From Mytilus trossulus (lineage: Eukaryota), in contig NC_086383.1 in the NCBI RefSeq assembly GCF_036588685.1, positions 12,462,001 to 12,526,000 on the forward strand: a stretch of DNA of 64,000 nt. The letters run 5' to 3'. Each line of letters opens with the position of its first letter. Within the stretch, counting starts at the first letter, position 1. Positions 590-50,786 of this stretch are shown here, piece by piece. The position numbers and the translations under genes are program-made. A model generated the notes under the pieces. It was given only the letters and a program-made list of their open reading frames with translations. It was not told the origin of the DNA and ran no database searches.

Positions 590-2546
590 TATCAAAATAA
601 ACTTTGACCGTTAATATACTTCCTTGTGTGCGTGTATTTATAGTCATTGACTTGGTGTATTTACCTTGTTGCAAAAAGTAGATTGGATAAATAGTTATCA
701 AAAATACCAGGATTATAATTTTATACGCCAGACGCGCGTTTCGTCTACATAAGACTCATCAGTAAACAGTATTTAAAAATATACCATTGGCAAACTTATT
801 TAAAGTACAAAAACTTCTTTCTAAAGGAAATTTACACTTTAAATTTTCTATTTTGTCAATGCTGCATTTCATCTGAACATTTGTGTGTATTTAACATCTT
901 TTAGTGGGTTTTTTTTTTCGTTGGATTTTCTTTATCGATGTTATCATTCTCAACTTTTTTAAATTATATTTTCCATCTTTCTTTGTTATGTAATTATTCA
1001 ATTCATTCCTGTTCCATGTCTTTGTAATATGCACATTTTGCCATGCTATGTTTAAGAAATTTTCAAATTTGAGTTAATCCTGTAACGAAACATATAAATA
1101 CAAGCTAGATGCAGCATGTTTCTGAATTATATTAGTACAGTGTGTTTTGTATTATGAAAAATCACTGTGATGATGACGAATAAATGTGTTTAAACAAACA
1201 ATGCTTCTTGTAAACATTATGTAAGAATATTGAACAACGAATTAACGATCTTCTCAAGAGAATTAATTTCAAAAATACAATCAACAACTCATCTAAGTCA
1301 TCGGTCTATCAAAATCTTGTAAAGGACTAATTCTGACTCGATGTTTTAAATTGTTTCAAACCTTTTATGTATAGTTTGCTATGTATACTTCAATACTAAG
1401 TCTGTGAACTATATAAACTCGTTAATGGATAGAGATTGTGTTCTTGCAATAGCTGTATTGGTGGTTCTAGTTTGAATGTATCCTTCAATTCTCATCTACT
1501 CCTCCCACAAGCACACAGTGTTAGGGGTTGATTGGACCGCAGTAAAACTTTTGATAGTAATACGATGTTGCCTTGTGAATTGGTATGTTGAAAGGTCGAC
1601 TTAGTGTGACGGTCTATATCTAGAGCAAGGCAGGAACATCTATATTTCGTGAAGATCATCCTTAATATTCATTTTAGCTTTGTTGTTGGACGTCAAGCAA
1701 CGATAAACCAATAATTCGGTACTCTGTGGTCTGTTTTTTACTGAAATATTTGTCATCATGTACCTCAAGTTATAATACATCTTTGGCTGTATATATATAT
1801 ATATATGTGTCGAGAGTTCCTGTTGAATGTGCTTTAATTTGTAATAGCGTTTTCGACGCTCAAATTTTCAAAGAATTTTTTATCACCGTGTTATAACCTA
1901 TGCTGGTGTACACTGTTAGTCATAAAGGAGTATTGTTTATAACACACTACTCTTTTTTTTCAGTAAAAATATAAATAACGAATCATCTAAAATACTAGCT
2001 CCCTCTGACACGTTTACCTTCGATTAATTCCTGTTTGGTCACGTAGATCCTCAAGTATTATATATCCTTGGTTTTCAAATATATGGTTTTGAGCGTTCCT
2101 GGTTAATCCAGGAAGATTGCTTTAAATGCACCTAATTGGTACAGTTTTATTATAATTATTTAGTATCAAATACAGTCACTTTTCTCAATTGCGACAGCAG
2201 AAATTTTTTTTTATAGTTTGCGTTCTCTATACATGTAATAAATAATATATACATGACAGTTCATGTTAAATAATTGTCATAATTCATTTTTTAGAAAATT
2301 AAAATCCTTTTTTATCATATTTATTTGTTTCTTATTTCTTATTTGTAACTGTTAATATAAATAACTTTTGGTTTTGTTATTCTTTGTTTAGCCCTTGGTT
2401 TTGATTGTTATTGTCTTATATCTTAAGGACACGTAACATCATGATGTAACTTTCTTTCTGTAGAGAAATTCTTAACTTATAAAGCTCCTAATGTATATTT
2501 TCAGGTCTCATGTTGACATTTGTGATTTATTTTCAAAAAATAGTAT
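590..2546. repeat. ~2-kb intergenic block of the TRIM tandem unit (upstream region plus 3' flank of the A-type gene); recurs at about 4485-6533, 11502-13304, 36392-38253 and 44125-46426
   Basis: Long colinear near-identical stretches (e.g. ttgttggacgtcaagcaacgataaaccaataattc) appear five times, each beside a TRIM start codon or its upstream region. Confidence 0.85.
692..762 (-). ncRNA. Truncated family-1 hammerhead (5' arm of stem I missing), inserted upstream of TRIM copy 0
   Basis: The reverse complement reads CTGATGA-GTCT tatgt AGAC-GAAAC GCGC GTC TGGCGT. The insert is absent from the paralogous upstream regions. Confidence 0.7.
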
Positions 2547-4484
2547 TTAAATAATTTCACATAGTGAGGCCTTCCCAGAGGTCAAACAGGTGACGATTAA
2601 TTTGTTGCTGCTTGGTGCAAAACGTATTGTCCATGGACTCTCAATTCCTATGGTTGTAGCCGGAATTATTCTTATTAAACTTCCTTCGTTTGTTATTTGA
2701 TGGATATTTGCAGAATTATATCCAGCGATGTATATATTGCCAACCATGTCTACTCCAATCCCTCTTGGACCTGAAAGTTTGGTGTTTGTATAGGTAAATT
2801 TTGTCGTATCACCAACTGAATAATTGACTGAATTATTACAGATACCATATATACAGTCTTGTTCTCCGAGTGATAAAACAAAGTTCGAGTTACTTGCTGT
2901 CTGTCTTTCATTTATTTTTTCTCCATATGGAAAGTTGAGCCAAGTAAGTTTGTTACTAGAACCAATTATTAATTGTTTTTCGTTGACACAGGATAATCCG
3001 TATACTTGTAAAAAAGGAAAAGTCAAAGTTTGTAACAATGTCATTTTATCACTATCAACAACAAATAATGCCTTCTTGGTAGAAGAAATGGCAACTTTTA
3101 ATTGTACTATCGCGGCAATATCCTCAGGTGCATTTGGAAGCAACAATTCTGATAGTAAGCTATTTCCATCGAATTTGTATTTTACTACTTTGTTCCTCCC
3201 ACGAATTGTAAATAGTAGATAGTTTTGTATGAAAATACCACTAGAAGGACCTCTACCTTTACATACGTCGATAACTTGCAGAATTTTGATATTTCCGGTT
3301 CGGAAGTCTATGTTGGATATCCCAAGCATACCGGTCACCTTACTATCAGGTGATTCGTCAACTTTAATAGATCCAAAGGTCTTGGTATTCTTCAAATCAG
3401 CAATAGGAGATGAAGGACTGAAAACAACCGATATTGTTTTAATATTTTTCTTTAAATTTATCATTTCTCCTGCTAGATCAGATATTTTAGGTTCCATTTT
3501 GTTAATTTCCATCAGACATTGCTGCTCGGATCCGTGGTTAAGAACACTATCGAACATGTCTTTCCAATTTTTAACGGCACTTTTGTACGATACACAAGCG
3601 TCTATTTCGTCTTTTAATTTGATACCCACTTGCTTCTTGGTTGAGGTCAACTCTACTTTCATGGTTTCTTCCATTTTGTCAATATGCTTTAAAATTTCCG
3701 TTTTCATATTAGAGACGCTTGTCTCAATCACTTCTATTGAATTATTTACATTGAATAAATTTGAGTTCCGATTTTCAATAATTTCATTAAGCTGGTCAGA
3801 GTGTTCTGTCAGTTTCTCGGATAAGTCATTAGCCGCTTTTGACTGTTTGATACCGGAAGCAGCTTCTTGAATTGAAGTAACATTTTCACATTTACGGTGT
3901 GAAAGTGTAGCGCACGACGTACAACAAGGTTGGGAATGATCCAAACAATAAAATTCTATGATCTTTCCTGTATGCTCGTCACAGCTTTGTACCTCACAAA
4001 CTTCAAAAGGTGTATCACCGGACTTCATTTCTTGAATGTTTAGAAGTTTATGTCTTGCTGACATCTTAAAGTTTTTGTGACATTTTTCGCACTGTTCACA
4101 GAACGCCTCCTCACAAATCGTACACCAGCTTTTTGCTTTTGTACTTTCTTTGTTTAACTGACACGAGTCGCACATTTTCTCTGCCTTCTGTATTGCTCGT
4201 TTATCTAACATTGAGGTAACAAAATGATTTGTAGGCAACGTGGTCGCCCATAATTCTGGCCTTTCTAATGTTTCCACTGATGATACAATTTTTCGACATA
4301 CAGGACATGTAAATCCCTCGGTTATCTTTCCCTTTTCCACAGAAGACACAATGTAGGTATTAATACACGATTCACAGAACGTATGAAGACATGGTAGATA
4401 CTTCGGAACTTTGAATGTTTCCAAACAAATCGTGCAAGTTAACAAATCATCGAAATGTGTTGTATCCTTAATAGGTGTCGCCAT
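2547..4484 (-). CDS. TRIM-family E3 ligase with NHL-like beta-propeller, copy 1 (A-type C-terminus), intact, 645 aa from ATG
   Basis: C3HC4 RING (CTIC...CLHTFCESC...CPVC), two B-boxes, coiled coil and propeller repeats (GPRGIGVDMVGNIYIAG). Single-exon ORF; the ORF track starts at a TTG, the real ATG is at 4484. Confidence 0.92.
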   Translation of the reverse strand: MATPIKDTTHFDDLLTCTICLETFKVPKYLPCLHTFCESCINTYIVSSVEKGKITEGFTCPVCRKIVSSVETLERPELWATTLPTNHFVTSMLDKRAIQKAEKMCDSCQLNKESTKAKSWCTICEEAFCEQCEKCHKNFKMSARHKLLNIQEMKSGDTPFEVCEVQSCDEHTGKIIEFYCLDHSQPCCTSCATLSHRKCENVTSIQEAASGIKQSKAANDLSEKLTEHSDQLNEIIENRNSNLFNVNNSIEVIETSVSNMKTEILKHIDKMEETMKVELTSTKKQVGIKLKDEIDACVSYKSAVKNWKDMFDSVLNHGSEQQCLMEINKMEPKISDLAGEMINLKKNIKTISVVFSPSSPIADLKNTKTFGSIKVDESPDSKVTGMLGISNIDFRTGNIKILQVIDVCKGRGPSSGIFIQNYLLFTIRGRNKVVKYKFDGNSLLSELLLPNAPEDIAAIVQLKVAISSTKKALFVVDSDKMTLLQTLTFPFLQVYGLSCVNEKQLIIGSSNKLTWLNFPYGEKINERQTASNSNFVLSLGEQDCIYGICNNSVNYSVGDTTKFTYTNTKLSGPRGIGVDMVGNIYIAGYNSANIHQITNEGSLIRIIPATTIGIESPWTIRFAPSSNKLIVTCLTSGKASLCEII

Positions 4485-4511
4485 TATCAAAATAAACTTT
4501 GACCGTTAATA

Positions 4512-4538
4512 TACTTCCTTGTGTGCGTGTATTTATAG
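4512..4538 (-). promoter_or_regulatory. Putative core promoter: TATA box (CTATAAATA) with a downstream AGGAAGT motif, about 50 nt upstream of the ATG
   Basis: The TATA sequence is conserved at the same spacing upstream of copies 0, 1, 2, 3, 4 and 6, and altered in copy 5. Confidence 0.45.
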
Positions 4539-5784
4539 TCATTGACTTGGTGTATTTACCTTGATGCAAAAGGTAGATTAGATAAGTAGTATTTAAAAAT
4601 ATACCATCGGCAAATTTATTTAAAGAACAAAAACTTCTTTCTAAAGGAGATTTACAAGTTAAATTTTCGTTTTTGTCAATGCTGAATTTCATCTGAACAT
4701 TTGTGTGTATTTAACATCTTTCAGTGGGTTATTTTTTTCGTTGGATTTTCTTTATCCATGTTATCATTCTCATTTTTTTTTAATTATATTTTCCATCTTT
4801 CTTTGTTATGTAATTATTCAATTCATTCCTGTTCCATGTCTTTGTAACATACCATGCTATGTTAAATTGGAGTTATTACTGTAAGAAAACATATAGATAT
4901 AAGCTAGATGAAGCATGTTTTTGAATTATATAAGCAATAAGTATAGTGTGTTTTATTATGGAAAATCAATGTGTGATGAAGACGTCGAATAAATATGTTT
5001 ATACAAACAATGCTTCTTGTAATTTACTTAAAACATAATGTAAGAATTGTGAACAAAAAAATAGCTTTCTTCTCAAGAGAATTAATTTCAAAAGTACAAT
5101 CGATATCAAAAACTTTTAGAGGACTAATTCTGACTTGTTGTTTTAAATTGTTTTAAACCTTTGATGTATTGTTTGCTATGTATACTTCAATACTAAATCA
5201 TCTGTGAACTATATAATCTCGTTAATGGATATAGATATTGTGTTGTTGTAGTAACTGCATTGGTGGTTCTAGTTTGTATGTATCGTTCGATTCTCATCTA
5301 CTCTTCCCGCAAGCACAAAGTGTTAAGGGTTAGTTGGACCGCAGTAAAACTGTTGATATTAACACGATGTTGCCTTGTGAATTGGTATGTTAAAAGTCGA
5401 CTTAGTATGACGGTCTAGAGCAAGGCAGGATCATTCATATTCCATGAACAGGTTATTCTCCTCAACATTAATGTTAGCTTTGTTGTTGGACGTCAAGCAA
5501 CGATAAACCAATAATTCGTTAATCTGTGGTCTGGTTTTTACTTAAATATATGTTATCATGTACCTCAAGTTATAATACATCTTTGGCTGTAAATATATGT
5601 GTCGAGAGTTTCTGTTGAATGTACTTTAATTTGTTATAGCGTTTTCGACGCTCACATTTTCAAAGATTTTTTTAGCACCGTGTTTTAATCGATGCTGGTG
5701 TGCAATGTTAGACCTAAAGGAGTATTGTTTATAACACACTCCTCTATTTCTTCAGTAAAAATATCAATTACGAATTTCCTAAAA

Positions 5785-6082
5785 CTTTGTGTGCTAACAG
5801 GAATTGTCATTGATATAGTTAAATTTATAAATTTACTGTTTACAAATGTTTGAATTTTTTGAATACTAAGGCTTTTCTCCCTCAGGCATAAATTACCTTA
5901 GCTGTATTTGGCAAAACTTAAAGGAATTGTGGTCTTCAAAGCTCTTCAACTTCGTATTTTATTTGGCCTTTTTAACTGTTTTGGATTCGATCGTCACTGA
6001 TGCGTCTTTTGTAGTCTTTTGTAGACGAAACGCGCGTCTGGCGTATATACTAAATTTAGTCCTGGTACCTATGATGAGTTTA
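5785..6082 (+). mobile_element. Partial family-1 retrozyme-like repeat with a degenerate hammerhead (5991-6044)
   Basis: Body is similar to 11053-11427. The core reads CTGATGC instead of CTGATGA and there is a 10-nt duplication in stem II. Confidence 0.7.
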
Positions 6083-6533
6083 TATTCCTCAAGACTTAGT
6101 ATTATGTATCCTTGGTTTTCAAATATATGGTTTTGACGTTCCTGGTGAAGGTTAATCCAAGAACAACGCTTTAGATGCACCTAATTGGTTCAGTTTTATT
6201 ATAAATATTTAGTATCAAATACAGTCATTTTTCTCAACAGAAACATTTTTTTTTTATATTTTGCTTTCTCTATGCATGTAAAAAAAGTATCTATACCTGA
6301 CAGTTCATGTTAAATAATTATCATCGTTTATTTTTTAGAAAATTAAAATCCGTTTTTTACGCCTTGGTTTTAATTGTTATCGTCTTATATCTTAATGACA
6401 CGTAACATCATAATGTAACCTCCTTTCTTCTGTACAGTAATTCTTAACTTATATAGCTCATTATGTATATTTTCATGTCTCATGTCAGTTTTCTCATGTT
6501 GACATTTGTGATTTATTTTTAAAAAAAAAGTAT

Positions 6534-7328
6534 TTAAATAATTTTACTTATTGATGCCTTCCAATAATCAAACAGGTAACGATAAATTTGTTGCTGTTTG
6601 GTGCAAAACGTATTGCCCATGGGCTCTCAATTCCCACGGTTGTAGCCGGAATTATTTAATTAGATTTCCTTCGTTTGTTATTGGTGGATGTTTGCAGAAT
6701 TATATCCAGAGATGTATGTATTACCAACAATGTCTACTCCAATCCCCCTTGGACCTGAAAGTTTGTTGTTTGTATAGGTAATTTTTTCTCACATAACCGA
6801 CTGAATAATTAACTGAATTCATTCTGGTACTATATATATGCGTATAGTGATAAAACAAAAAGTAAAATCACAAAAATACTGAACTTAGAGGAAAATCAAT
6901 TCGAAAAGTCCATAATCACATGGCAAAATCAAATAACAAAACGCATAAAAAACGAATGGACAAGAACTGTCATATTCCTGACTTGTTACAGGCATCTTCA
7001 AAATTAATGTAGAAAACGGTGGATTAATCTTGGTTAAACAAAGTTCGATCAAAGTTCGAGTTACTACTAGTCTGTCTTTCGTCCATTTGTTCTCCGGATG
7101 AAATGATTATCCATGTACAAAAATGTAAGTTTGTTACTAGGACCAATTATTAATTATTTTTCGTTGACACAGGATAGTCCATATAATTGTATAAATGAAA
7201 ATGTCAAAGTTTGTAACAATGTCATTTTATCACTATCCACTATATATATACTGGTAGACGAAACGGCAACTTTGAATTGTATTATGGTAGAAATATCCTG
7301 GGGTGCATTTGAACGCAACAATTGTGAC
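6534..7328 (-). pseudogene. Orphan TRIM propeller remnant A (A-type 3' end only)
   Basis: Colinear with 2547-3150 but with indels; interrupted by a ~180-bp repeat (about 6858-7035) and abutting an RTE insertion. Confidence 0.8.
6858..7035. repeat. ~180-bp interspersed repeat (aaaatcacaaaaatactgaac...ggattaa), also at about 38575-38745 and 46757-46930
   Basis: Inserted at the same site (tgataaaaca|aagttcgag) in remnants A, C and D; the site is empty in remnant B and copy 1. Confidence 0.7.
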
Positions 7329-7889
7329 CTTACCTTAACCTTAATTCTCTCCGCGCCAGAAGTCGCATAAGGCCTCCACGCTGCTTTTCCACCCTTTTCT
7401 ATCTTTAGCCGCTGTTCTGGCTACGTTCCAACTTGTCCATCCTTGTTGGTTCCTTTCTCTCTCTGTTGTTCTTCTCCATGTAGTTTTTGGCCTTCCTCTA
7501 GTTCTTTTCCCTTCAGGTGCCCATTGTAGAGCTACATAGCTGTTGTTGTCTCTTTCACGTCTTCATGTATGTCCTATCCATGTCCACCGTCTCCTTCTGA
7601 TTTCACAACTGATGTTTCTAGTGTTAGCTATTTCGTTTACTGTTTTGTTTGATGTTTTACTCTGCCATCTTATTTTTAGGATCTTTCTTAGGCATAGGTG
7701 TTCTACAGTATTAAGTTTCTTTTCTTCAATGTTTGTTAATTTCCATGTTTCGCATCCATACAATAATACAGGTCTTACTAATGATTTATAAAGGTGAATT
7801 TTTGTTTTTCGGCCAATTCCTCTTGCATACCATATATTTCTTAGGCGATGGAATGTCCCTCTTGCTTTCTGTATTCTGTTTTTGATGTC
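7329..7889 (-). mobile_element. 5'-truncated RTE-clade LINE, 3' end
   Basis: Translates to ...LVRPVLLYGCETWKL...RRRRWTWIGH...PEGKRTRGRPKTTW...; short (TAAGG)n-like tail; 11-bp TSD acaattgtgac at 7318-7328 and 7890-7900. Confidence 0.88.
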
Positions 7890-8076
7890 ACAATTGTGAC
7901 AGTAATATGATATTCAAGATTATTGAGGATAGTAATCACTCTTTTTCAGTTTTAGTTTCTTATCGCTATCTGATCTCAAATGGGAGTCATATCCAGCACT
8001 ATCTGAACGCTGCTTTACCAAACATATCATAACTTTACTTACACTATCATAACTTTACTTACACTGAAAATGACGA

Positions 8077-8120
8077 GCATCACTGAAGAGACATGTATTG
8101 TCGAAATGCGCATCTAGTGC
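8077..8120 (+). ncRNA. Minimal type I hammerhead ribozyme, family 2; predicted cleavage after C8114
   Basis: GCATCA-CTGAAGA-GACA tgtat TGTC-GAA-AT GCGC AT-C|TAGTGC, with one stem I mismatch. Confidence 0.8.
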
Positions 8121-8426
8121 AACAAAATTGGTACCGTTGATTTTATTACTACCACTGGGTCGATGCCTCTGCTGGTGGACTATTGGTCCCCGAGGGTATC
8201 ACCAGCCCAGTAGCCAGTACTTCGGTACTGGCATGAAAATACGGATTTTTTGTGTTATTAAAATTTGCTGTTACAAAATATTAGAAATTATTAAAAATTA
8301 AGGAATGTATCTCCCTCATGCAAAGCTCTGATTCCTTTCACGAATTTGGCTATACTTTTTGGACCTTTTGGATTATAGCTCTTCATCTTTTATATATGCT
8401 TTGGATTTCAAATGTTTTGGCGACGA

Positions 8427-8470
8427 GCATCACTGAAGAGACATGTATTGTCGAAATGCGCATCTGGTGC
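8427..8470 (+). ncRNA. Minimal type I hammerhead ribozyme, family 2; predicted cleavage after C8464
   Basis: Stem I GCATCA/TGGTGC, CTGAAGA core, stem II GACA/TGTC, GAAA, palindromic stem-loop III ATGCGCAT, AUC triplet. Confidence 0.88.
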
Positions 8471-8805
8471 AACAAAATTGGTACCGTTGATTTTATTACA
8501 CATGTAACAGTGTCACACAAAACATTTCAGATATTTAAATTTTTATTATAAACATTCGTAAAGTATTTTGCGATAAAGAATAAAGAAGACAATTTTTAAT
8601 CAAAATCAATTTAAGTAAGCATATAGTTCTTTAAATGTCCGAATATATTTTAATGTGTGGTTTCTTAATGTGAAAGCATATGTTAATTTCCTTGACTTTT
8701 CCTATTATACCATGTGTTTGTATCGCTTAAATAAATCACATATATGATACACGTATGGTACTTAGGTTGGTAAGTTGAAGAAAAAGATGCAATATCCATG
8801 AGGTA

Positions 8806-10746
8806 TTAAACAAATTCACATATTGTTGCTTTGCCAGAAGTCCCACACGTGACAACCATTTTGTTACTTTTCGTTGTAAAACGAATTGCCCATGGATTAA
8901 AAATTCCTACGGTTGAAGCCGGAATTTTTCTTATGAAATCTCCTTCGTTCGTTATTTGGTGGATGTTTCTAGAACTATTTGATGCAATGTATAAATTGCC
9001 CATACAGTCTACTCCTAGCCCTCTAGGATAAATAAATTCAGAGTTTGTATAAGTAAACTTTTTCGTATTGCCCACTACATAATCGACTGTAGTTCTACTG
9101 TCAGCATACATATAATCGGTCTGTGATAATGATAACACAAAGTATGACTGACCTCCAGTCGTCTTTTGATTTACTTGTTGTCCCGACGAAAGGTTTATCC
9201 ATGTGAGTGTGGAACTATCACTAATAATAAATAGTTCTTCATTGACAAAGCTTATTCCATACACTGGTATACCTGGTAAATTCAAGGTTTGTAACAATAT
9301 CATTTTATCACTATCTACTAAACATACTCCCTGCCCAGGAGACGATACTGCAACTTTGAATTGTGTTACTACTGCAATATCCTCGGGTGAACCTGGAAGT
9401 GCTAATTCTGATTGCAAACTTTTTCCTTCACTGTTATACTTCACTACTTTGTTCTTCCCACGAACTGTAAAAAGTAGAAGGTTTTGTATAAATATACCAG
9501 ATGTAGTTCCGGCACCATTACACACGTCAATAGTTTGTAGAATGTTAATTTTTCCAGTGCGGAAGTCGACTTTGTCTATCTCAAGGTTACCACTCAAAGA
9601 AATAACAGAGGATTTATCAACTTTGATACTTCCAAAAGTCTCGGCATTCCTGGTAAAATCTGCTATAAGTGAAGAAGGACTAAAAACAACTTTTACACTC
9701 TTTATATTTTTTACCAAATCTTTCACTTCTTGTTCGAGTTCTGAGATTTTAGGTTCGATTTTATTAACTTCCATCAGACATTGCTGCTCGGATCCATGTT
9801 CTAGAACACTGTCTATCACTGTTTTCCATTTTTTAACAGCGCTACTATAAGACGAAAGCAAACCAACTTCGTCTTCTATTTCTATTCCAACTTGCTTCTT
9901 GGTTGAGGTCAACTCAATTAACAGGGTTTCTTCTATTCGATCTAAATGCTTTAAAATTTCAGTTTTTATATCAGCCACTCTTGTCTTAATCTATCCTGTT
10001 GAATTCTCAACATCAGCTAAATTATTATTTCGATCATCAATAATTTCATCTAACTGAATCACGTGCTCTCTTACTTTTTGGGATAAACCAGACGCTTTCG
10101 TTGACTGTTTGATACCGGAAACGGCTTTTTGGATTGAAGTAACATTTTCACATTTACGGTGTGAAAGTGTAGCGCACGACGTGCAACAAGGTTGAGAATG
10201 ATCCAAACAATAAAATTCTATGATCTTTCCTGCATGCTCTTCACAGCTTTGTACCTCACATACTTCAAAAGGTGTATTACCGGACTGCATTTCTTGAATA
10301 TTTAGAAGTTTATGTCTTGCTGTCATCTTAAAGTTTTTGTGACATTTTTCGCACTGTTCACAGAATGCCTCCTCGCAAATAGTACACCAAGATTTTGCTT
10401 TTGTACTTTCTTTGTTTAACTGACACGAATTGCACATTTTCTCTGCCTTTTGTATTGCTCGTTTATCTAACATTGATGTTACAAAATAATTGGTAGGCAA
10501 CGAGGTCGCCCATACTTCTGGCCTTTCTAATGTTTCCACTGCTGATACAATTTTTCGACAAACAGGACATGTAAATCCCTCGGTTATCTTTCCCTTTTCC
10601 ACAGATGACATAATGTAGGTATTAATACATGTTTCACAGAATGTATGAAGACATGGTAGATACTTTGGAACTTTGAAAGTTTCCAAACAAATCGTACAAG
10701 TTAATAAATCATCGAAGTTTTCTCTGTCCTTAGTGGGTGTCGCCAT
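8806..10746 (-). pseudogene. TRIM copy 2 (B-type), full length but with a single in-frame TAG at 9991-9993
   Basis: ORFs 9991-10752 and 8806-9978 are in the same frame; paralogues have GAG (STGEIK) at the stop position. Confidence 0.88.
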
Positions 10747-11052
10747 TATCAAAATAAACTTTGACCGTTAATATATTTCCTTGTGTGCGTGTATTTATAG
10801 TTATTGACTTGGTGTATTAACCTATAGATGTGAAAGGTAAACACTTTGAGATTAACAGCCAAACGTGTACAACAACAAACTCTTCTACATACACAAGTTT
10901 TTACTAAAGGATAGGGGACAAAGGCTTTAACTGTTATGCTATTTTTAGGTCATTATAAATTATTTTTTTGTTATCTCTTATTCTGAATAGTATTTGTTGT
11001 TGGCTGTTATTGTCTTACATTTCTTATTCCTTGTAATTAGCTGTAGCCTGTA

Positions 11053-11427
11053 GGTACTTTTGATAACTATTTAAACCACTTGGTCGATGCCACCGCATGT
11101 GGACGTTTCGTCCCCGAGGGTATCACTAGACCAGTAGTCAACATTTCGGTGTTGACATGAATATAAATCATGTGGTCATATTTTATAAATTTCCTGTTTA
11201 CACAACTTTGATTTTTTTCGAAAAACTAAGGATTTTCTTATGCCAGGCATAGATTACCTTAGCCGTATTTGGAACAACTTTTTGGAATTTTGGATCCTCA
11301 ATGCTCTTCAACTTTGTACTTGTTTGGGTTTATAAAAAAATTTGATTTGAGCGTCACTGATGAGTCTTATATAGACGAAACGCGCGTCTGGCGTACTAAA
11401 TTATAACCCTGGTACCTTTGATAACTT
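11053..11427 (+). mobile_element. Family-1 retrozyme-like monomer (~358-nt period) with terminal redundancy ggtac(t/c)tttgataact
   Basis: Contains an intact hammerhead; its body is homologous to the 350-nt family-2 unit. A further fragment follows to about 11503. Confidence 0.8.
11351..11394 (+). ncRNA. Minimal type I hammerhead ribozyme, family 1; predicted cleavage after C11388
   Basis: GCGTCA-CTGATGA-GTCT tatat AGAC-GAA-AC GCGC GT-C|TGGCGT; all core nucleotides present. Confidence 0.88.
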
Positions 11428-13650: not shown

Positions 13651-13909
13651 ACATTCGTAAAGTATTATGCGAAATAGAATAAAGAAGAAGAATTTTAATT
13701 AAAATCAATTTAAGTAAGCATATAATTCTTTAAATGTCCGTATATATTTGAATGTGTCGTTTCTTAATATGAATGCATATGTTAATGTCCGTGACTTTTC
13801 CCATTATACCATGTGTTTGTATCGTTTAAATAAATCACAGATATGATACACGTGTGGTACTTAGGGTGGTAAGTTGAAATACAAATGGATGTTTATCCAT
13901 AAATAGGTT

Positions 13910-31959: not shown

Positions 31960-31962
31960 AGT

Positions 31963-39572: not shown

Positions 39573-40162
39573 GAAAGGGAATTGTAGTTACGACGCTAGG
39601 AACATATCCGATATCCTTTGTGAAACAGTAATTCCATTACGGTTGACCAACTCGTGATGTCGTCCGTAAAATTTACGAAGGGATGATTTCAACTTCACCA
39701 TTTAGAACTCTTCGTTTGATAGCTTATTTGTGGGCAGCAACCCTTTATCAAGAAAAATCATGATTGGAAATGCAAGCACGGGAATATCGTAACAATTGAG
39801 AGATATATACCCCGAATGCCGGTGCTGCTGGAATGTTGCTACTAGTAATGGAAAGTTCACAATTGGAAAGCTGAAATCATCTCTTTTGTCGTAAAGTTTT
39901 CATCCGAGTCTCATTGTCAATTTCTAGATGTATGTCAAAATTTAAGGCCTACTTAATTGTATCTGTTATATCCTTTATATCTAGTTCGATGGTATAGATA
40001 CGTTCAACATAGTCACCAAATTTTGGATTATTTAGTGAAAAGAACATCATCTATATCATGTATATAGCGGAAAGTAGAGTAAAAGGATATTGCTAACTTC
40101 TTATCTTTCTTCCTAAGAAGCTCCTGTAGGAAATCAGCCTTATATTAATAAGAAACAAGTCA
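39573..40162 (-). mobile_element. Degenerate Penelope-like element reverse transcriptase fragment
   Basis: The minus strand gives ...STFRYI(HD)IDDVL.LNN...KLYDKRDDFSFPIVNFP..SNIPAAPAFGVYISQLLRYSRAC...LKSSLRKFYGRHHELV, matching PLE RT and thumb motifs as I recall them; frameshifted. Confidence 0.72.
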
Positions 40163-41006
40163 TTAAACTATTCTACATTGCGAGAAAACAGGATTTAATG
40201 ATGGTTAAAGTATTGGTCTTCTAAACAGATCAACAACACATCTTAATAACAGTTCTACCCAAAACGTTTTACTAACAGAAGTGATGTCATAATAAATCAT
40301 TCATTAGCCAACTTTATTTTCAGATGAGAAAATCATATTTTTTAGGGATTAAACAGTAGTCAATTTTCGGGGTTTTTTTCTCGGAATATTGCCACAACTT
40401 TTTTTAAATGGTAGAGTAGTTTCAAAATAAGAAAAAGGTAAAGAACAATGTTTGAAACAAACTGCCATTATAGCATTTTCATTTTCATTTTACCCAATTT
40501 TGTTAAGAAATACCCTTGGAAAAGATAAGTAGAATAAGTTGCAAATAAACTGGCATAATCAAGACAAAAAAGAAGAAGATCAAAACCCAAACAACATATA
40601 TTAAAAATATGCTTTCCTTCTTGAATTAAATGTAAGGCTGGGTAGCAGTCCCCTGGACACATTTAATCATATATAATAATGCTTCGAATAAAAAAAAGAA
40701 TCGGTATGTTGATTTGTTGTTAGTGTTTTATGCCTATATCAGCACTTTTTGCTTTATTGTGATGGTCAGTTTTCGGTGGGGTTCGTGTTGCTTATTCTTT
40801 AGTTTTCTATGTTGCGTCTTATTTACTTTTATTTGTCTGTTCGTCTTTTTATTTTTTTGGCCATGGCGCTGTCAGTTTAATTTCGATTAATGAGGAAATA
40901 CGTTCATCTGGTATCTTTCGTCCCTCTTTTTCTTTTGATGGAGCAAAAGCAAAGTGAGCGGAGAGAACCACCGACTATCGGCAGAAAAATTGGCAATCCT
41001 AGTCAA

Positions 41007-41336
41007 AAGATCACTTTCGAGTTCATCCATCAACGGAAAAAAACTCGTCAATTACGTCTGCCTTTGTGACGTCATTTACCATATTAGGGGGTTCGCCTGT
41101 ATTCCTACACTATTAACGCTCATCAAGCGTCTTAGTGATCGTCATTGTGTAGAAAAATACATGTAGAAATAAAGTTTGTTCAGTAGGTATTTAATCACAA
41201 TTACCTAATGACAGCGGTACTGGTTATCAATTATGAGAATTTAATTTGCCGCATGATTCGTGCAATATAGCTTAACAGTGACGTTCACTAAAACCAAATT
41301 TTTTGACGGAAATGCAACGAACTCGAAAGTTGTCTA
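41007..41336. mobile_element. ~330-bp MITE nested in a SINE-like repeat
   Basis: TIR actttcgagttc (about 41013) / gaactcgaaagt (about 41319-41330); the flanks rejoin as the repeat also seen at about 41420-41660 and 30405-30655. Confidence 0.6.
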
Positions 41337-42172
41337 TTAAGATTGAAGCTTTACGCACCTGACACGTGCGATTTTGAACTCACAACCTCAGTGCTGACAT
41401 GCTAGTGAAACAGAAGATGGTTGATTATTTGTTTTAAACGCCCATTCAAAAACTATTGACTATTGTGGTGGTCAGTTTTCATAGGTGGAAGAAGCTAAAA
41501 TGTGCAGGGTGAACTGTCGACAGTCGGGAGGAAAACTGACAATCCTATTAAATTAAGATGGAAGTCGAACGCATCTGACACTTGCGGTACCTCACAACCT
41601 CAGTACTGACATGATATAAATACAGTGGAAGTACATTGTACAACTTAGTCTACTCGTTCACCGACGCCCCTAAAATTGGTATGAAGAAATGGCTATGTGG
41701 GAATACGACAATTAAAGGTAAAAAAATCAAATTATATCTATAGGAAACATAATATAGTATAAACAGCTCTTTTGATCTATAACAAACATACTTTAAATTT
41801 ACCAACAGTGTTACACAAGACACTTCAGGTAAATATCTTTTTATCATAAACGTTCGTAAAAGTGTTTTTATTATACTGTCTTTTCTTAATGTGAGTGTAG
41901 ATGTTGATTTACTTGACTGTTCCCATTAAACTATGTAATTGAATCGTTTTATTGATAAATCACATATATAATACACATTTGGTATTAAGGGTGATAAGAT
42001 GAAAAAAAAATGTTTGTTTTTATCTATAAATGGTTTTTAAACATATTCACATACTGTTGTTTTGCCAGAACTCAAACATGTATGGTCGTTCCAATCAATT
42101 ACAGAATAGAACCTCAGTTTCGCCATTGACATACTATATCGGCAAATTTGATATTTTGTCCTCGAACAGAAA

Positions 42173-44124
42173 TTACTTACTAACAATTTCACACAATACT
42201 GCTTTTCCAGAACTATTGCATGTGACCAGAAATTTGTTGCTTCCTGGTGCAAAATGTATTGTACATGGTTTTTCAATTCCAACGGCGGAAGCCGGAATTT
42301 TTCTTATGAGTTCTCCTGTGTTTATTATTTGGTGGATGTGTTTTGAAGTAAATGATACAATGTATAAATTGCCCATAAAGTCTTTTCCAATCCCTCTAGG
42401 AAAATGCAAATCAGAGTTGGTATAGGTAAACTTTTTAGTTGTGCCGCCTACATAATCGACAGAAGTTGTACTGTTGGCAAAAATATAATCAGTATTTGAT
42501 AAAGATGACACAAAGTACGATTCGTCAGTAGTCTTTCTATTGGTTATTGTTTGTCCGGAAGAAATATTTATCCATGTAAGTGTGGATTTATAACAAGTTA
42601 TAAATATTTCTTCATTGACAAAGCATAATCCATACACTGGTATACCTGGTAATTTCAAGATTTGTAACAATACCATCTGATCACTATCTACTACACATAC
42701 TCCCTGCCCAGGAGACGAAACTGCAACTTTGAATTGCTTTACTACAGAGATGTCCTCCGGTGCACCTTGGATTGCCAATTCTGATTGCAAACTTTGTCCA
42801 TCACTGTTATACTTCACTACTTTGTTCTTCCCACGAATTGTGAAAAGTAGAAGGTTTTGTATAAATATTCCAGACGTAGTTCCGGTACCATTACACACGT
42901 CGATAACCTGTAGAATGTTAATATTTCAAGTGCGGAAGTCGACTTTGTCTACTTTCATCTCAAGGTTACCATTCAAAGAACTAACAGCGGATTTATCAAC
43001 TTTAATTCTTCCAAACGTCTGGGCATTCTTGATAAAATCTGTAATGGGGGAAGAAGGACTAAAAACAACTGATACACTCTTTATTGTTTTCACCAAATCT
43101 TCAATTTCTTGTTCAAGTTCTGAGATTTTAGGTTCTATTTTATTCATTTCCATCAGACATTGCTCCTCGGACCCATATTCTAGAACACTGTCTATCACTG
43201 TTTTCCATTTTTTAACGGCGCTCCTGTAAGAAGAAAGAACACCTACTTCGTCTTTTAATTCTATTCCAACTTGCTTCTTGGTTGAGGTCAACTCGGATAA
43301 CAGGATTTCTTCTATTCGATCTATATGCTTTAAAATTTCAGTTTTTATATCAGCCACTCTTGTCTTAATCTCCTCTGTTGAAATCGAAACATCAGCTAAA
43401 TTCTTATTTCGATCATCAATAATTTCACCTATCTGAATAACGTGCTCTCTTAATTTTTGTGATAAACCCGATGCTCTCGTTGACTGTTTGATACCGGAAG
43501 CGGCTTTTTGGATTGAAGTCACATTTTCACATTTACGGTGTGAAAGTGTAGCGCATGATGTGCAACATGGCTGAGAATGGTCTAAACAATAAAATTCTAT
43601 GATCTTCCCTGGATGTTCGTCACAGCTTGATACCTCCCATACTTCAAAAGGTGTATCACCGAACTTCATTTCTTGAATGTTTAGAAGTTTATGTCTTGCT
43701 GACATCTTAAAGTGTTTGTGATATTTTTCGCATTGTTCACAGAACGCCTCCTCACAAATCGTACACCAGCTTTTCGCTTTTGTACTTTCTTTGTTTAATT
43801 GGCACGAGTCGCACAATTTTACTGCCTTTTGTATTGCTTGTTTATCCAACATTGATGCTACAAAATGATTTGTAGGCAACGTGGTCGCCCATAATCATGG
43901 CCTTTCTAATGTTTCACTGCTGGTACAATTTTTCGACAAACAGGACATGTAAATCCCTCGGTTATCTTTCCCTTTTCCACAGATGACACAATATAGGTAT
44001 TAATACATGATTCACAGAAGGTATGAAGACATGGTAAATACTTCGGAACTTTGAATATTTCCAAACAAATCGGGCAAGTTAACAAATCATCAAAATGTTC
44101 TGTATCCTTAGTGGGTGTCGCCAT
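42173..44124 (-). pseudogene. TRIM copy 5, with a -1 frameshift near 43915 and GGA>TGA at 42926-42928
   Basis: ORF pieces 43906-44130, 42926-43879 and 42173-42898 rebuild the full protein; the TATA motif is also altered. Confidence 0.88.
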
Positions 44125-45106
44125 TATCAAAATAAACTGTGACTATTAATACTTCCTTGTGTGTGTGTAGACATAGCTATTGATTTTCAATGTATTTATC
44201 TCGTTGCAAAAGGTAAATTAGATAAACAGTATTTAAAAATATACCATTAGCAAACTCATTTAGAGTACAAAAACTTCTTTCTAAAGGAGATTTACACGTT
44301 AAATTTTCTATTTTGTCAATGCTGCATTTCATCTGAGCAGTTCAATGTATTAAACATCTTTCAGTGGGTTATATTTTTTTCGTGGGATTTTCTTTATCAT
44401 TTTTTTCAATAATATTTTCCATCTTTCTTTGTTATGTAATTGTTCAATTCATTTCTGTTCCATGTCTTTGTAACACATGTTTATGAAAGTTTTAAATTGG
44501 AGTTATTACTGTAAGGAAACATATAAATATAAGCTAGATGCAGCATGTTTCTGAATTATATTAGTACAGTGTGTTTTGTTTTATTAAAAATCAATGTGTG
44601 TGATGATGACGAATTAATATGTTTAAACAAAGAATGCTTCTTGTAATTTACTTAAAACATAATGTAAGAATATTAAACAACGAATTAGCCATAATCGCAA
44701 GAGAATTAATTTCAAAAGTACAATCGACAACTCATCTTAGGCATCGTTCTATCAAAAACTTGTAGAGGACTTATTCTGACTCGTTGTTTTATACTGTTTT
44801 AAACCTTTTATGTATAGTTAGCTATGTATACTTCAATGTTGTTAATGACTGTGTCATTTTGGTCTTTTATGGATAGTTGTCTCATTGGCAATCATACCAC
44901 ATCTTCTTTTTGATATTCAATACTAAATCTGTGAACTATATAATCTCGTTACTGGATAGAGATTGTGTTTTTGTAGCAACTGCATTGGTGGTTCTAGTTT
45001 GAATGCATCCTTCGATTCTTATCTACTCCTCCTGCAAGCACACAGTAATAGGGGTTGATTGGACCGCAGTAAAAAATTATCAAAGGTACCAGGATTATAA
45101 ATTAGT

Positions 45107-45150
45107 ACGCCAGACGCGCGTTTCGTCTACATAAGACTCATCAGTGACGC
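45107..45150 (-). ncRNA. Minimal type I hammerhead, family 1, intact, within a ~160-bp insert (about 45076-45236)
   Basis: Reverse complement: GCGTCA-CTGATGA-GTCT tatgt AGAC-GAAAC GCGC GTC|TGGCGT. The insert is absent from paralogous blocks and flanked by taaaa. Confidence 0.88.
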
Positions 45151-45830
45151 TCATATCAAAATATTTTTAAAGCCAAACAAGTACAAAATTGAAGAGCATT
45201 GAGAATCTAAGATTCCAAAAAGTTGTGCCAAATACGTATAAAACTTTTGATATTAGTACGATGTTGCCTTGTGAATTGGTATGTTAAAAGTTCGACTTAG
45301 TGTGACGGTCTATATCAAGTCAGAATCATTCATATTTCATGAACAGGATATCATCCTCAATATTCATTTTAGCTTTGTTGTTTGACGTCAAGCAACGATA
45401 AACCAATAATTCGGTACTCTGTGGTCTGGTGTTTACTTAAATATTTGTTATCATGTACCTCAAGTTATAATACATCTTTGACTAAATATATGTGTCGAGA
45501 ATTTCTGTTGAATGTACTTTAATTTGTAATAGCGTTTTCGACGCTCAAATTTTCAAGGATTTTTTTAGCACCGTGTTATAACCGAAGCTGGTGTGAACTG
45601 TTATTCCTAAAGTAGTATTGTTGATAACACACTCCTCTTTTCTTCAGTAAAAATATAAATAACGAATCATCTAAGATACTAGCTCCCTCGGACAAGTTTA
45701 CCTTCGATTAATTACTGTTTGGTCACGTAGATTCTAAAGTACTTAGTATATTGTATCCTTGGTTTTCAAATATATAACTTTGAGCGTTCCTGATGAAAGT
45801 GAATCCAAGAAGAACGCTTTAGATGCACCT

Positions 45831-46013
45831 AATTCGCCGTTTCAGAATCTACTGCATCCTGGGTAATATTTTCAAAATCGTACACCAAAGCGTCTTGATT
45901 GGTTTAAAACGTTATAAACAATGGAAATTCAACCAATGACGTAACGTTATTTTCACTTTGGGTTACAAACAATGAAATTACCCATGATGCTTTAGATTCC
46001 GAAACAGCCAATT
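45831..46013. mobile_element. ~180-bp MITE
   Basis: TIR of about 35 bp (gtttcagaatcta..gcatcctgggtaat / attacccatgatgc..tagattccgaaac); AATT on both sides; empty in paralogous blocks. Confidence 0.75.
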
Positions 46014-46426
46014 GGTACAGTTTTATTATAATTATTTAGTATCAAATACAGTAACTTTTCTCAATTGCTACAACAGAAACATTTTTTTATAGTTTGCGTT
46101 CTCTATGCATGTAATAAATTATCTTTACATGTCAGTTCATGTTAAATAATCATCATCATTTATTTTTTAGAAAATTAAAATCCTTTTATTTTAATTTAAT
46201 TGTTTCTTATTTATTATTTGTAACTGTTGATATAAATGACTTATGGTTTTATGAGTCTTTGTTTACTCCTTGGTTTTGATAAGTATTGTCTTATATCTTA
46301 AGGACACGTAACATCATACTGTTACTTCCTTTCTGCAGAGTAATTCTTAACTTATAAAGCTCCTAATGTATATGTTCATGTCTCATGAAGTTTTCTCATA
46401 TTAATTTATTTTCAAAAATATAGTAC

Positions 46427-47448
46427 TCAAATAATTCCACATAGTGGGGCCTTCCTAGAAGTCGAACAATCAACGAAAAAGATTTTGCTTCTTGGTGCAA
46501 AACGTATTGTCCATAGACACTCAATTCCCACGGTTGTAGCCGGATTTTTTCTAATTAGATTTCCTTCGTTTGTTATTTGTGGATGTTTCCAGAATTATAT
46601 CCAGCGATGTATATATTACCAACAATATCTTCTCCGATCACTCTTGGACCTGAAAGTTTGTTGTTTGTAGAGGTAAATTTTGTCACTTAACTAACTGAAT
46701 ACTTGACTGATTCATACTGGTACCATATACTAGTATATGTGCATAGTGCTTAAACAAAAAGTAAAATCACAAAAATACTGAACTTAGAGGAAAATCAATT
46801 CGGAAAATCCATAATCACATGGCAAAATCCACTAACAAAAAACATAAAAAACGAATGGACAAGAACTGTCATATTCTGACTTGGTACAGGCATTTTCAAT
46901 TGTAGAACATGGTGCACTAAACCTTGTTTAACAATAAAATTAATGGTACCATTTTCTTGGCACCAGATGCGCATTTAGACAATACATGTCTCTTCAGTGA
47001 TGCTCGTGGTCAAACTATTTGAAATCCAAAGCTTATATAAAAGATGAAGAGCTATAATCCAAAAGGTCCAAAAAGTATAGCCAAATCCGTGAAAGGAATC
47101 AAAGCTTTGCATGAGGGAGATACGTTCCTTAATTGAAAATAATTTTTAATATTTTGTAACAGCAAATTTTAATAACACAAAAAAATCCGTATTTTCATGC
47201 CAAAAAAGTTCGAGTTACTACTAGTCTGTCTTTCATCCGTTTTTCTCCGGATGGAATGATTATCCATGTAAGTTTGTTACTAGAACCAATTAATAATTGT
47301 GTCTCGTTGACACAGGATAATCCATGTACTTGTATAAATGGAAATTTCAAAGTTTGTAAAAATGTCATTGTATCACTATCCACAATATATACTGGAAGAC
47401 GAAACGGCAACTTTGAATTGCATTTGGACGCAACAATTGTGATAGTAA
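46427..47448 (-). pseudogene. Orphan TRIM propeller remnant D (A-type 3' end) with two nested inserts
   Basis: ORF 47195-47410 (VDSDTMTFLQTLKFPFIQVHGLSCVNETQLLIGSSNKLTW) matches copy 1. Confidence 0.8.
46931..47201 (-). mobile_element. Partial family-2 retrozyme-like unit; its hammerhead (46960-47003) has GAAA>TAAA and is predicted inactive
   Basis: Reverse complement of about 8230-8495. Confidence 0.8.
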
Positions 47449-47877
47449 TATGACATTCAATATTATTGAGGATAGTAAAAACTCAATTTTAGTTTAGTTT
47501 TTTAGCGCTATCTGGTCTCACATGGGAGTCATATATGAACGCTGCTTTACCAAACATAACATAACTTTACTTACACATGTTACAGTCTCACATCAAACAC
47601 TTCAGGTAGTTTTTTTATTATAAACATTCGTAAAGTAGTATGATATATAGAATAAAGAAAAAAAATTTTAATTAAAATCAATTTAAGTAAGCATATAATT
47701 CTTTAAATGACCGTATTTATTTTATTGTGTCGTTTTTTAATGTGAATGCATATGTTAATTTCCTTGACTTATCTTATTATACCATGCGTTTGTATCGTTT
47801 AAATAAATCTCATATATGATACACGTATGGTACTTAGGGTAGTAAGTTTAAAAAATAGATGCTTTATCCATGAGGTT

Positions 47878-50168
47878 TTAACCAAATTCCATATTGTTGC
47901 TTTGCCAGTATTCGAACATGTGACAACCATTTTGTTACTATTCGTTGCAAAACGAATTGTCCGTGGAAACTCAATTCCTACGGTTGAAGACGGGATTTTT
48001 CTTATCAATTCTCCGTTATTTGGTGGATGTTTTTAGATTGGTTTGTTGCAATGTATAAATTGCCCATACAGTCTATTCCAATCCATCTAGGGTAAGATAA
48101 ATCAGAGTTGGTATAAGTAAACTTTTTCGTGTTACCGAATACATAATCGACAGAAGTGTGACTGTCAGCAAACATGTAATCAGTCTGTGATAATGATAAC
48201 ACAAAGTAAGATTGACCACTAGCTGTCCTTTTGTTAATTGTTTGTCCTGATGAAAGGTTTATCCACGTGAGTGTTGAACCATGACCAGTAATAAATATTT
48301 CTTCATTGACAAAGCATAATCCATACACTGGTATACCTGGTAAATTCAAAGTTTGTAACAAAATCAACGTATCACTATCTATTACACATATTCCATGCTT
48401 AGGAATGGATACAGCAACTTTGAAGTGGGTTACCGCAGCAATGTCCTCCGGTGAACCTGGAAGTGCCAATTCTGATAGCAAACTTTGTCCGTCATTGTTA
48501 TACTTCACTACTTTGTTCTTCCCACGAACTGGGAAAATTTCGATAAAATTTCGAAGTTACTATAACAAAATGGCGATTAAATAATTCTCAAACGTAGACG
48601 TTGATTTTGCACATGCAAATAATTCAAGAAAGATTTAACTGTTTTTAATTGCAATTAAATATGACATGTTATTGTAAATCGTATGATGATCAGAATAAAG
48701 CTAGATTGTGGAGATATTAATTAAGTCATCAACGTGATCAAAGAAAACAAACATGGCAACGTGGCCTAATCACGATGTAAGTTTTGTATATATATTAGTA
48801 TTATACGATTGTTTATGAAATCATTTTATTATAATATTTTGTATTAACAAAAGAAAACCACGAATGGATGATATGGTAACAAAGATGAAATATCTATAAA
48901 TATATATTGTTTAAATCATTACACAGGTAACCAGTACAGTTTGCATAACCCTAATTTAACCAGTCAAATACAGAGTCCTCGAAACTCATTATGACTGGAA
49001 TAGTTGCTTTTGCATTCAAAGAACTAACAGCGGATTTGTCAACTTTAATTCTTCCAAACGTCTGGGCATTCTTGATAAAATCTGTAATAGGGGGAGAAGG
49101 ACTAAAAACAACTGATACACTCTTTATATTTTTCACCAAATCTTCAATTTCTTGTTCAAGTTCTGATATTTTAGGTTCGATTTTATTAATTTCCATCAGA
49201 CATTGCTCCTCGGACCCATGTTCAAGAACACTGTCGATCACTGTTTTCCATTTTTTAACAGCGCTACTATAAGATGAAAGCATACCTACTTCGTCTTTTA
49301 CTTCTATTTCAACTTGCTTCTTGGTTGAGGTCAACTCGGTTAACAGGGTTTCTTCTATTCGATATAATTGCTTTAAAATTTCAGTCTTTATATCAGTCAC
49401 TTTTGTCTTAATCTCTTCTGTTGAAGTCTCAACATCAGCTAAATTCTTATTTCGATCATTAATAATTTCACCTATCTGAATCACGTGCTCTCTTAGTTTT
49501 TGTGATAAACCAGACGCTTTCGTTGACTGTTTGATACCCGAAGCGGCTTTTTGGATTGAAGTAACATTTTTACATTTACGATGTGAAAGTGTAGCGCACG
49601 ACGTACAGCAAGGTTGAGAATGATCCAAACAATAAAATTCTATGATCTTTCCTGGATGCTCGTCACAGCTTTGTACCTCACATACTTCAAAAGGTGTATT
49701 ACCGGACTGCATTTCTTGAATGTTTAGAAGTTTATGTCTTGCTGACATCTTAAAGTTTTTGTGACATTTTTCGCACTGTTCACAGAACGCCTCCTCACAA
49801 ATCGTACACCAGCTTTTCGCTTTTGTACTTTCTTTGTTTAACTGACACGAATTGCACATTTTCTCTGCCTTTTGTATTGCTCGTTTATCTAACATTGATG
49901 TTACAAAATGATTGGTAGGCAACGTGGTCGCCCATAATTCTGGTCTTTCCAATGTTTCCACTGCTGATACAATTTTTCGACAAACAGGACATGTAAATCC
50001 TTCGGTTATCTTTCCCTTTTCCACAGATGACACAATGTAGGTATTTATACACGATTCACAGAACGTATGAAGACATGGTAGATACTTCGGAACTTTGAAA
50101 GTTTCTAAACAAATTGTACACGTCAATAAATCATCGTAGTTTTCTGTATCCTCAGTGGGTGTCGCCAT
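47878..50168 (-). pseudogene. TRIM copy 6 (B-type): RING/B-box/coiled-coil part open (405 aa to 48951); propeller cut off by foreign sequence at about 48531-49012 and frameshifted
   Basis: Homology stops after VSSLN and resumes at VRGKNKVVKY; 7-nt deletion near 48014 and 1-nt deletion near 47890. Confidence 0.85.
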
Positions 50169-50433
50169 TATCAAAATAAACTTTGACCGTAAATATATAC
50201 TTCCTTGTGTGCGTGTATTTATAGTTATTGACTTTGTGTATTTACCTAGTTGTGACAGATAAGATAAACAACCAAAAGGGTACGACAACAAACATTTTTT
50301 TAAATACACAAGTTCTTACTAAAGGCTATTTTGAGGTAATTTTAAATTGATTCTTTGTTATCTTTTATTCTGAAAAAGTATTAGCTGTTAGCTGTTATTG
50401 TCTTACATGTCTTATTCCTTGTAATTAGCTGTA

Positions 50434-50786
50434 GGTACTTTTGATAACTATTTAAACCACTTGGTCGACATGGTCGATGCCACTGCTGGTGGACGTTTCG
50501 TCCCCGATGGTATCACCAGCCCAGTAGTCAACATTTCGGTGTTGACATGAATATCAATCATGTGGTCATTTTATTTTATAAATTTCCTGATTACAAAACT
50601 TTGATTTTTTTCGATTCCAAGCATAGATTACCTTAGCCGTATTTGGCACAACTTTTTGGAATTTTAGATCCTCAATGCTCTTCAACTTTGTGCTTGTTTA
50701 GCTATGTGAGCGTCACTGATGAGACTTATGTAGACGAAACGCGCGTCTGAAGTACTAAATTATAATCCTGGTACTTTTGATAACTA
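50434..50786 (+). mobile_element. Family-1 retrozyme-like monomer with hammerhead at 50710-50753 (stem II mismatch)
   Basis: Terminal redundancy ggtacttttgataacta at 50434 and 50770; same insertion site as upstream of copies 2 and 3. Confidence 0.8.

Follow-up and report, generated by a model that had tools for sequence, protein, structure and literature searches.

Hammerhead ribozymes between TRIM genes of Mytilus trossulus lie in mostly truncated copies of abundant non-LTR retrozymes

The stretch of Mytilus trossulus DNA analyzed here (the window; 64,000 nucleotides, contig NC_086383.1, positions 12,462,001 to 12,526,000) carries a cluster of TRIM genes with eleven hammerhead ribozyme motifs dispersed along it. 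A first-pass annotation made from the letters alone had described both, and both stand: all eleven hammerheads have the positions and stems it gave, and RING and B-box domains are confirmed in the two TRIM genes tested (2/2). The seven TRIM start codons all lie on the minus strand, and none of the hammerheads falls inside an open reading frame (ORF). The cluster, which consists of single-ORF RING/B-box/coiled-coil genes, continues beyond the window for 11 kb or more on the upstream side. Its genes have chimeric-looking 3′ halves and 3′-end remnants, and several copies are broken. Feature coordinates are collected in Table 1.

The motifs display the CUGANGA, GAAA and UH elements, the three helices and the open stem I of type I hammerheads. 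A regular-expression scan recovers ten of the cores and returns no match in the shuffled window; the eleventh, at 5991, escapes the scan because of a 10-nt duplication and was found by direct reading. Five motifs (725, 21569, 22126, 45107 and 46960) occupy the minus strand. All eleven are genuine type I hammerhead sequences, mostly in the form of damaged copies. Three (8427, 11351 and 45107) are fully intact, their core and both stems I and II being complete and the palindrome of stem-loop III perfect. Motif 725 lacks the 5′ strand of stem I, the stem-loop at 22126 reads ATCTAATT, and the motifs at 8077, 18165, 50710 and 21569 have one or two mismatches in their stems. Motif 5991 combines an A9-to-C change with its duplication, which lies in stem-loop II, and motif 46960 has a G12-to-U change; both are likely dead. 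Only 11351-11394 exceeds the gathering score of Rfam Hammerhead_1 (34.5 bits against 34; 1/11), a model whose consensus itself contains the family-1 palindrome ACGcgCGU.

Every motif sits in a non-coding repeat, with units of 354 bp in family 1 (F1), 369 bp in F1b, 350 bp in F2 and 557 bp in F3. These are the three families of the first-pass annotation; two more, F4 (566-bp unit) and F5 (350 bp), exist beyond them and bring the number to five, F5 being present in the window as remnants. The F1 and F2 units are 71-73% alike, F3 and F4 86%, and F1a and F1b 80%, while F3 has only the hammerhead in common with F1 and F2, the rest of its unit being unrelated. The F3 and F4 units exceed the published range for retrozymes (150-450 bp, low GC). 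Exact matches to the cores (32-mers for F1-F3) number 11,823 for F1, 3,816 for F2, 662 for F3 and 861 for F5 in the 1.30-Gb genome, and reversed-sequence controls give 0 matches for each of the four. Copies occur both dispersed and in head-to-tail arrays, as is typical of retrozymes, with tandem spacings of 354-355 bp (F1), about 350 bp (F2 and F5) and about 550 bp (F3). RNA reads (three runs from two studies, two of the runs looking stranded) cover the repeats in 3/3 runs, where depth peaks at about 1,300 for F1 and 680 for F2 versus 0-8 on the intervening TRIM ORF, with a sense bias for F1 and F2 in the two stranded-looking runs. All family groups give reads in the same runs, and at the level of the family transcription is abundant. 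We conclude that the repeats are retrozymes without long terminal repeats (non-LTR retrozymes), a known mobile class already described in mussel; the first-pass annotation had overlooked both this and the thousands of copies.

Several loci outside the window show how far these families vary. F5 was first spotted as loose read ends; its hammerhead at L192:1500-1541 (-) has only two canonical pairs in stem II, with A and A flanking. The family is nevertheless amplified in 350-bp arrays and present in the RNA reads despite the 2-bp stem of its putative ribozyme. An Rfam E-value search of L192 and L024 returned no hammerhead match for F5 or F3. F4 forms a 13-unit array with a 565-bp period across L102-L103 (hammerhead at L103:6119-6162, -), and its cleavage triplet ends in A in those copies and in C in others. 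At L034:3781-6121, a mixed array with a 769-bp period alternates an F1 fragment, its palindrome broken, with an intact-looking F2 fragment. A generic descriptor run over 1.62 Mb found no further families; it also missed F5 and so is not exhaustive.

The eleven motifs amount to seven insertion events, two pairs of motifs being tandem units. Since the copies at 11351, 18165 and 50710 share junctions, they represent one insertion that was copied with the TRIM unit. Five insertions are lacking at the matching place in two to four paralogous TRIM units, and relative to the TRIM genes four events are sense and three antisense. The five decayed F5 remnants likely reflect one old insertion that was also copied with the TRIM unit. 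The ends of the copies follow a pattern: among 88 F1 alignments that cover the core, 78 end, and 52 of those 78 stop 60-79 nt past the core start, about 30-45 nt beyond the cleavage site; the 5′ ends are scattered. F1 and F2 copies in the window stop at this point too.

Penelope-like elements (PLEs) have been proposed as mobilizers of retrozymes (PMC7229834; 10.64898/2026.07.22.740005). The M. trossulus genome contains an intact 1000-residue ORF family with an N-terminal GIY-YIG, CxC and DKA, which are marks of the Naiad clade (PMC8557442). In four of five loci, the 5′ start of Naiad matches F1 positions 54-147 with 78% identity over 96 nt (E 5e-15 to 7e-16), the fifth locus being 5′-truncated, and F2 and F5 resemble the Naiad start as F1 does. 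Solo Naiads stop directly before this motif, at the same place as retrozyme copies, so that F1, F2 and F5 have both a terminal motif and an end point in common with Naiad. Folded, the motif gives a long stem-loop, in which covariation is weak (2/23 pairs). On these sequence grounds, Naiad is the likely mobilizer of the F1, F2 and F5 retrozymes. Searches for literature on Naiad together with retrozymes turned up only 10.64898/2026.07.22.740005 and PMC8557442. Two other arrangements were considered and rejected. An autonomous PLE flanked by F2 hammerheads is not present, as the pairs spaced 2.0-2.5 kb apart at L031 and L032 enclose no such ORF, and the Naiad reverse transcriptase (RT) at L031 belongs to a separate element that ends about 1.1 kb before the first F2 copy. 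The Naiad 3′ end shows no likeness to the retrozymes by eye, the common piece being the Naiad 5′ start. No ORF combining RT and GIY-YIG lies between hammerhead repeats at any copy in the window. Elsewhere, L210:1391-4390 and 4761-7760 hold tandem intact Naiads with a 3,370-bp period and many near-identical genomic copies.

The first-pass annotation regarded the hammerheads as concentrated in one TRIM cluster. As a background we applied the same scan to 28 random 50-kb blocks (seeded, two per chromosome), which contain 102 motifs at 69 loci, or 4.7 motifs and 3.2 loci per 64 kb. The window, with 10 motifs and 8 loci per 64 kb, lies at about 2-4 times the genome mean, and four of the 28 blocks are as dense in motifs and two in loci. 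Block counts are overdispersed (variance 7.4, mean 2.5); negative-binomial p values are 0.15 and 0.10, 0.19 without the duplicated copies and 0.06-0.13 for young copies. The 80 kb upstream of the window hold 8 loci and the 80 kb downstream 1. The window is thus a dense, not an exceptional, hammerhead region: a density within the spread of random blocks (2-4 of 28 equally dense, p 0.06-0.19) neither establishes a concentration in the cluster nor supports a link with TRIM. A regulatory role, in which TRIM transcripts would be cut by hammerheads recruited for the control of these immune genes, is very improbable. The raised density, the eight further loci upstream and three sense copies (725, 45107 and 46960) no more than 1 kb away from where a TRIM gene starts or ends would fit such a role. 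Against it, each insertion occupies a different place and most paralogs are without it, the orientations are mixed, 8/11 motifs are damaged, and the sole copy spread by duplication is antisense. RNA reads, too low in depth and lacking splice joints, did not define untranslated regions or introns of the TRIM transcripts.

Each of the five families carries a perfect palindrome of its own in stem-loop III (F4, ATCCGGAT; F5, AAGCGCTT), and neighbors in the series are one compensated pair apart. Changes affect positions 2/7 (C-G, U-A, A-U), 3/6 (G-C to C-G) and 4/5 (C-G to U-A), and all three variable pairs show double changes. Two of these pairs, 3/6 and 4/5, can form only in a dimer and are impossible in the loop of a monomer, so their conservation points to dimers. 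Across 15 sequences, 94% of 207 cells are paired, 7/14 pairs have double changes and 0/500 shuffles reach the covariation score, which, as the tool warns, is inflated by relatedness; the independent events are few. Double changes affect two of four pairs in stem II, two of six in stem I and three of four in stem III, with no clear excess in stem III given so few events. The stems therefore covary between families as the first-pass annotation stated, and its palindrome in each family holds at the family level, the single copy at 22126 being broken.

Folding of the isolated 42-44-mers predicts that the double hammerhead is favored over monomers in 5/5 homodimers (-3.7 to -9.0 kcal/mol), being the minimum-energy fold in three of the five, and in 0/10 heterodimers (+1.0 to +29.1 kcal/mol). 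The topology of the double-hammerhead fold implies that stem I strands would be exchanged as well. Discrimination is uneven. The F3/F4 heterodimer, at just +1.0 versus -3.7 and -7.1 for the homodimers, is barely discriminated, and F1, F2 and F5 have a central GCGC in common that lets their 8-mers cross-pair at -7.8 to -8.9 kcal/mol versus -10.1 to -13.3. The preference of homodimers makes the same-family specificity put forward in the first-pass annotation physically plausible as a prediction; an evolved code and action in trans did not gain support.

How the palindromes are to be read depends on whether the ribozymes dimerize and whether selection has driven the families apart. Were they to act as monomers, with a 2-bp stem III and a tetraloop, the palindrome would be inherited or mutationally maintained without a present role. 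Efficient cleavage of single invertebrate motifs has been reported (PMC7229834), and whole-unit folding does not predict a dimer. We nonetheless think monomer action unlikely: loop positions 3/6 and 4/5 have changed twice between families, once by a double transversion, and are still palindromic, an outcome with a chance of roughly 1 in 81 for both steps (a hand estimate that ignores CpG bias). The predicted probability of the active monomer fold is at most 0.0002 in a model without tertiary contacts, and the run-off assay would also be compatible with dimers in the tube. At the other extreme, the palindromes might form an evolved self/non-self code: selection would have driven them apart, leaving each family to activate its own members alone, in cis or trans, and to avoid helping or cutting competitors. 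Five families with five palindromes, the predicted unfavorability of all ten heterodimers (stem I mismatches included) and the presence of all family groups in the same runs agree with this, as does the pair F3/F4, which is 86% identical and yet has hammerheads that diverge in the central pair of the palindrome and in one base of loop II. So does the finding that 33/34 same-strand neighbors within 700 bp belong to one family group (F3 and F4 pooled), which is expected from tandem amplification alone, without any code. Several observations make a code improbable. Stem II (2/4 pairs) and stem I (2/6) are also double-changed, and stem II, intramolecular whether or not the ribozymes dimerize, cannot carry one; F1a and F1b, 80% alike, have the same palindrome; the GCGC families still cross-pair, and the F3/F4 heterodimer is only marginally unfavorable; two of the four steps appear to be CpG transitions reachable through G-U wobbles; and within F1 (57 distinct copies) just 1/43 palindrome departures is compensated, as expected of decay. 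The mixed F1/F2 array at L034 and the reported cleavage of a single cloned mussel repeat (PMC7229834) likewise speak against it.

More speculative still is a scheme in which the five co-expressed families use orthogonal stem III palindromes and swapped stem I strands for self-recognition, and the thousands of 5′-truncated genomic copies that keep palindrome, cleavage site and stem I 3′ strand serve as targets, which the abundant retrozyme RNA would cut in trans, family by family, in host transcripts. The sense copy 725, located ahead of a TRIM start, would be one example. We regard this scheme as a long shot, less probable than the code itself. A schistosome hammerhead is said to cleave in trans (reportedly described by Ferbeyre in 1998). 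Literature searches on heterodimers or trans-cleavage of retrozymes gave nothing relevant among the matches listed, Lunse 2017 and Ferbeyre 1998 not being covered. Predicted whole-unit folds, in which the ribozyme is buried, argue against mature circles acting in trans. By prediction, the family-specific palindromes favor within-family pairing, and this preference is likely a by-product, not an evolved code.

Taken together, these results make it very probable that the motifs are type I hammerheads in dispersed, mostly truncated copies of three abundant, transcribed non-LTR retrozyme families (350-570-bp units), likely pasted between the TRIM genes by a Naiad RT and without a role for TRIM. 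Directly observed are copy numbers in the thousands, head-to-tail arrays, RNA at the level of the family, insertion at independent sites, and 3′ ends that are fixed where the 5′ ends vary. For the published mussel element, multimeric transcripts self-cleave to monomers, which circularize (PMC7229834). On a nascent tandem transcript, the 8-nt palindromes of two neighboring ribozymes would pair and their stem I strands would be exchanged to give a double hammerhead, so that selection would maintain the palindrome. With each array made up of copies of one unit, the families would drift, by compensated steps, to palindromes of their own, and family preference would be the by-product. F1, F2 and F5 would carry a copy of the Naiad 5′ stem-loop, and reverse transcription would start just before it, as for Naiad, and so fix the 3′ end.

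Some results weigh against this explanation. The search for target-site duplications gave chance-level 6-10-mers only, along with 3-11-bp overlaps in three empty-site insertions. Pfam matches of the Naiad ORF fall below the cut-off, and the Naiad motif was not detected in F3 and F4. Most F1 and F2 reads are 90-95% alike to the window copies and hence derive from other genomic copies; joints at which reads jump back by 350 and 358 bases are equally compatible with circles and arrays; and read ends do not pile up at cleavage sites in these fragmented RNA libraries. Whole units, circles and dimers are predicted to contain neither monomer nor dimer ribozyme at equilibrium (palindrome pairing 0.01-0.08); the dimer step would therefore need co-transcriptional folding. 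Identity with the published mussel elements rests on size, structure and genome type rather than on sequence. The eight loci of the window give a Poisson p of 0.016, and with a density in the upper tail there may be a mild regional excess of hammerheads around the window.

The non-LTR retrozymes of Mytilus galloprovincialis are the closest published system: its type I hammerheads number about 5,000 and lie in 350-390-bp repeats of two families, expressed as abundant circular RNA, with one cloned repeat that cleaves at a kobs of about 0.1 per min (PMC7229834). The elements described here resemble them in having one type I hammerhead per 350-370-bp AT-rich non-coding unit, two similar families (here F1 and F2), tandem and dispersed copies and abundant RNA. 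As far as that account goes, they differ in comprising at least five hammerhead families, in the 550-570-bp units of F3 and F4 with their unrelated body, in the 2-bp stem II of F5 and in a copy number above the reported 5,000. In the standard published model, metazoan type I hammerheads have a short stem III and a palindromic loop and are proposed to act in tandem repeats as double hammerheads (PMC4209133; reviewed in PMC6765202). Palindrome-capped short stems III and many covarying families per genome are common to that description and ours, and dimerization through a palindromic stem III is therefore not new. The palindrome orthogonality between families is a computed property that our literature searches did not meet. 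The five-palindrome series with its predicted family preference is a modest addition. With the Naiad clade of PLEs (PMC8557442), the window elements share a fixed 3′ end, 5′ truncation and partial tandems; they encode no protein, and Naiads are without hammerheads. A terminal sequence common to retrozyme and PLE also features in the proposed PLE origin of retrozymes (10.64898/2026.07.22.740005), as described there; in the present case the common piece is the stem-loop at the Naiad 5′ start rather than a pLTR with a hammerhead.

Table 1. Coordinates of retrozyme copies, TRIM genes and other features in the window.
Feature	Position	Strand	Remarks
F1 retrozyme 3′ fragment	688..763	-	hammerhead 725-768, stem I 5′ strand lost; 99-174 bp upstream of a TRIM ATG and sense to that gene; site empty in 4 paralogous TRIM units
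F1b-type fragment	5824..6084	+	hammerhead 5991-6045; not at matching place of 4 paralogs
F2 insertion, 1.2 units, 350-bp period	8072..8499	+	8427-8470 is an intact hammerhead, and hammerhead 8077-8120 has a single mismatch in stem I; 2 paralogs have an empty site
Stem-loop common to the 5′ start of the intact Naiad Penelope-like element	8151..8212	+	also near 11077 and 50465
F1 full unit and further fragment	11053..11505	+	intact hammerhead 11351-11394; 11053-11432 is a full F1 unit with short terminal redundancy; left junction same as at 50434
F1 fragment	17970..18243	+	hammerhead 18165-18208 with a mismatch in stem I; has its right junction and a change in stem I in common with the 50710 copy
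F3 insertion, 2.4 units, 557-bp period	21280..22608	-	hammerhead 21569-21612 has a mismatch in stem II, and hammerhead 22126-22169 a broken palindrome; outside TRIM units
Decayed F5 remnant	37770..37834	+	paralogous remnants 2058-2101, 6108-6179, 12814-12867, 45755-45827
F1 3′ fragment	45068..45236	-	hammerhead 45107-45150 is intact; located about 950 bp upstream of a TRIM start codon; 4 paralogs have an empty site
F2 3′ fragment	46933..47202	-	hammerhead 46960-47003, G12 to U; site empty in 2 paralogs
F1 near-full unit	50434..50790	+	hammerhead 50710-50753 with mismatches in stems I and II; belongs to one insertion with the copies at 11053 and 17970
F1 body fragment without hammerhead	51695..51835	+	
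Tandem single-ORF TRIM genes, some broken	2..50168	-	ATG at 589, 4484, 10746, 15851, 36391, 44124, 50168
Naiad fragment inside TRIM cluster	39575-40162	-	inverted arrangement with the next
Naiad fragment inside TRIM cluster	40768-40933	+	
Fragment like C-terminal part of non-LTR RT	25414-25929	+	no Pfam match
21-bp minisatellite array	25886-26372		inverted to the next, ~2.9 kb apart
21-bp minisatellite array	29155-29652		
Ty3/gypsy-like LTR retroelement	55512-60995	+	pol broken by in-frame stops; by eye, gag with zinc knuckles, protease, RT, RNase H, integrase
23-bp array	61759-62287		

As a TRIM-linked system, the locus is ordinary, its hammerheads being insertions of a known class of parasite. 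The wider interest lies in the retrozymes themselves. The stem-loop and end point in common with Naiad name a candidate enzyme for the copying of retrozymes and a candidate place where copying would start, a question that PMC7229834 leaves open. The palindrome series offers comparative evidence that hammerheads of invertebrate retrozymes, reported to work alone, are still selected to dimerize, and the five families supply a natural set of 42-44-nt RNAs with which the specificity of that pairing could be studied.

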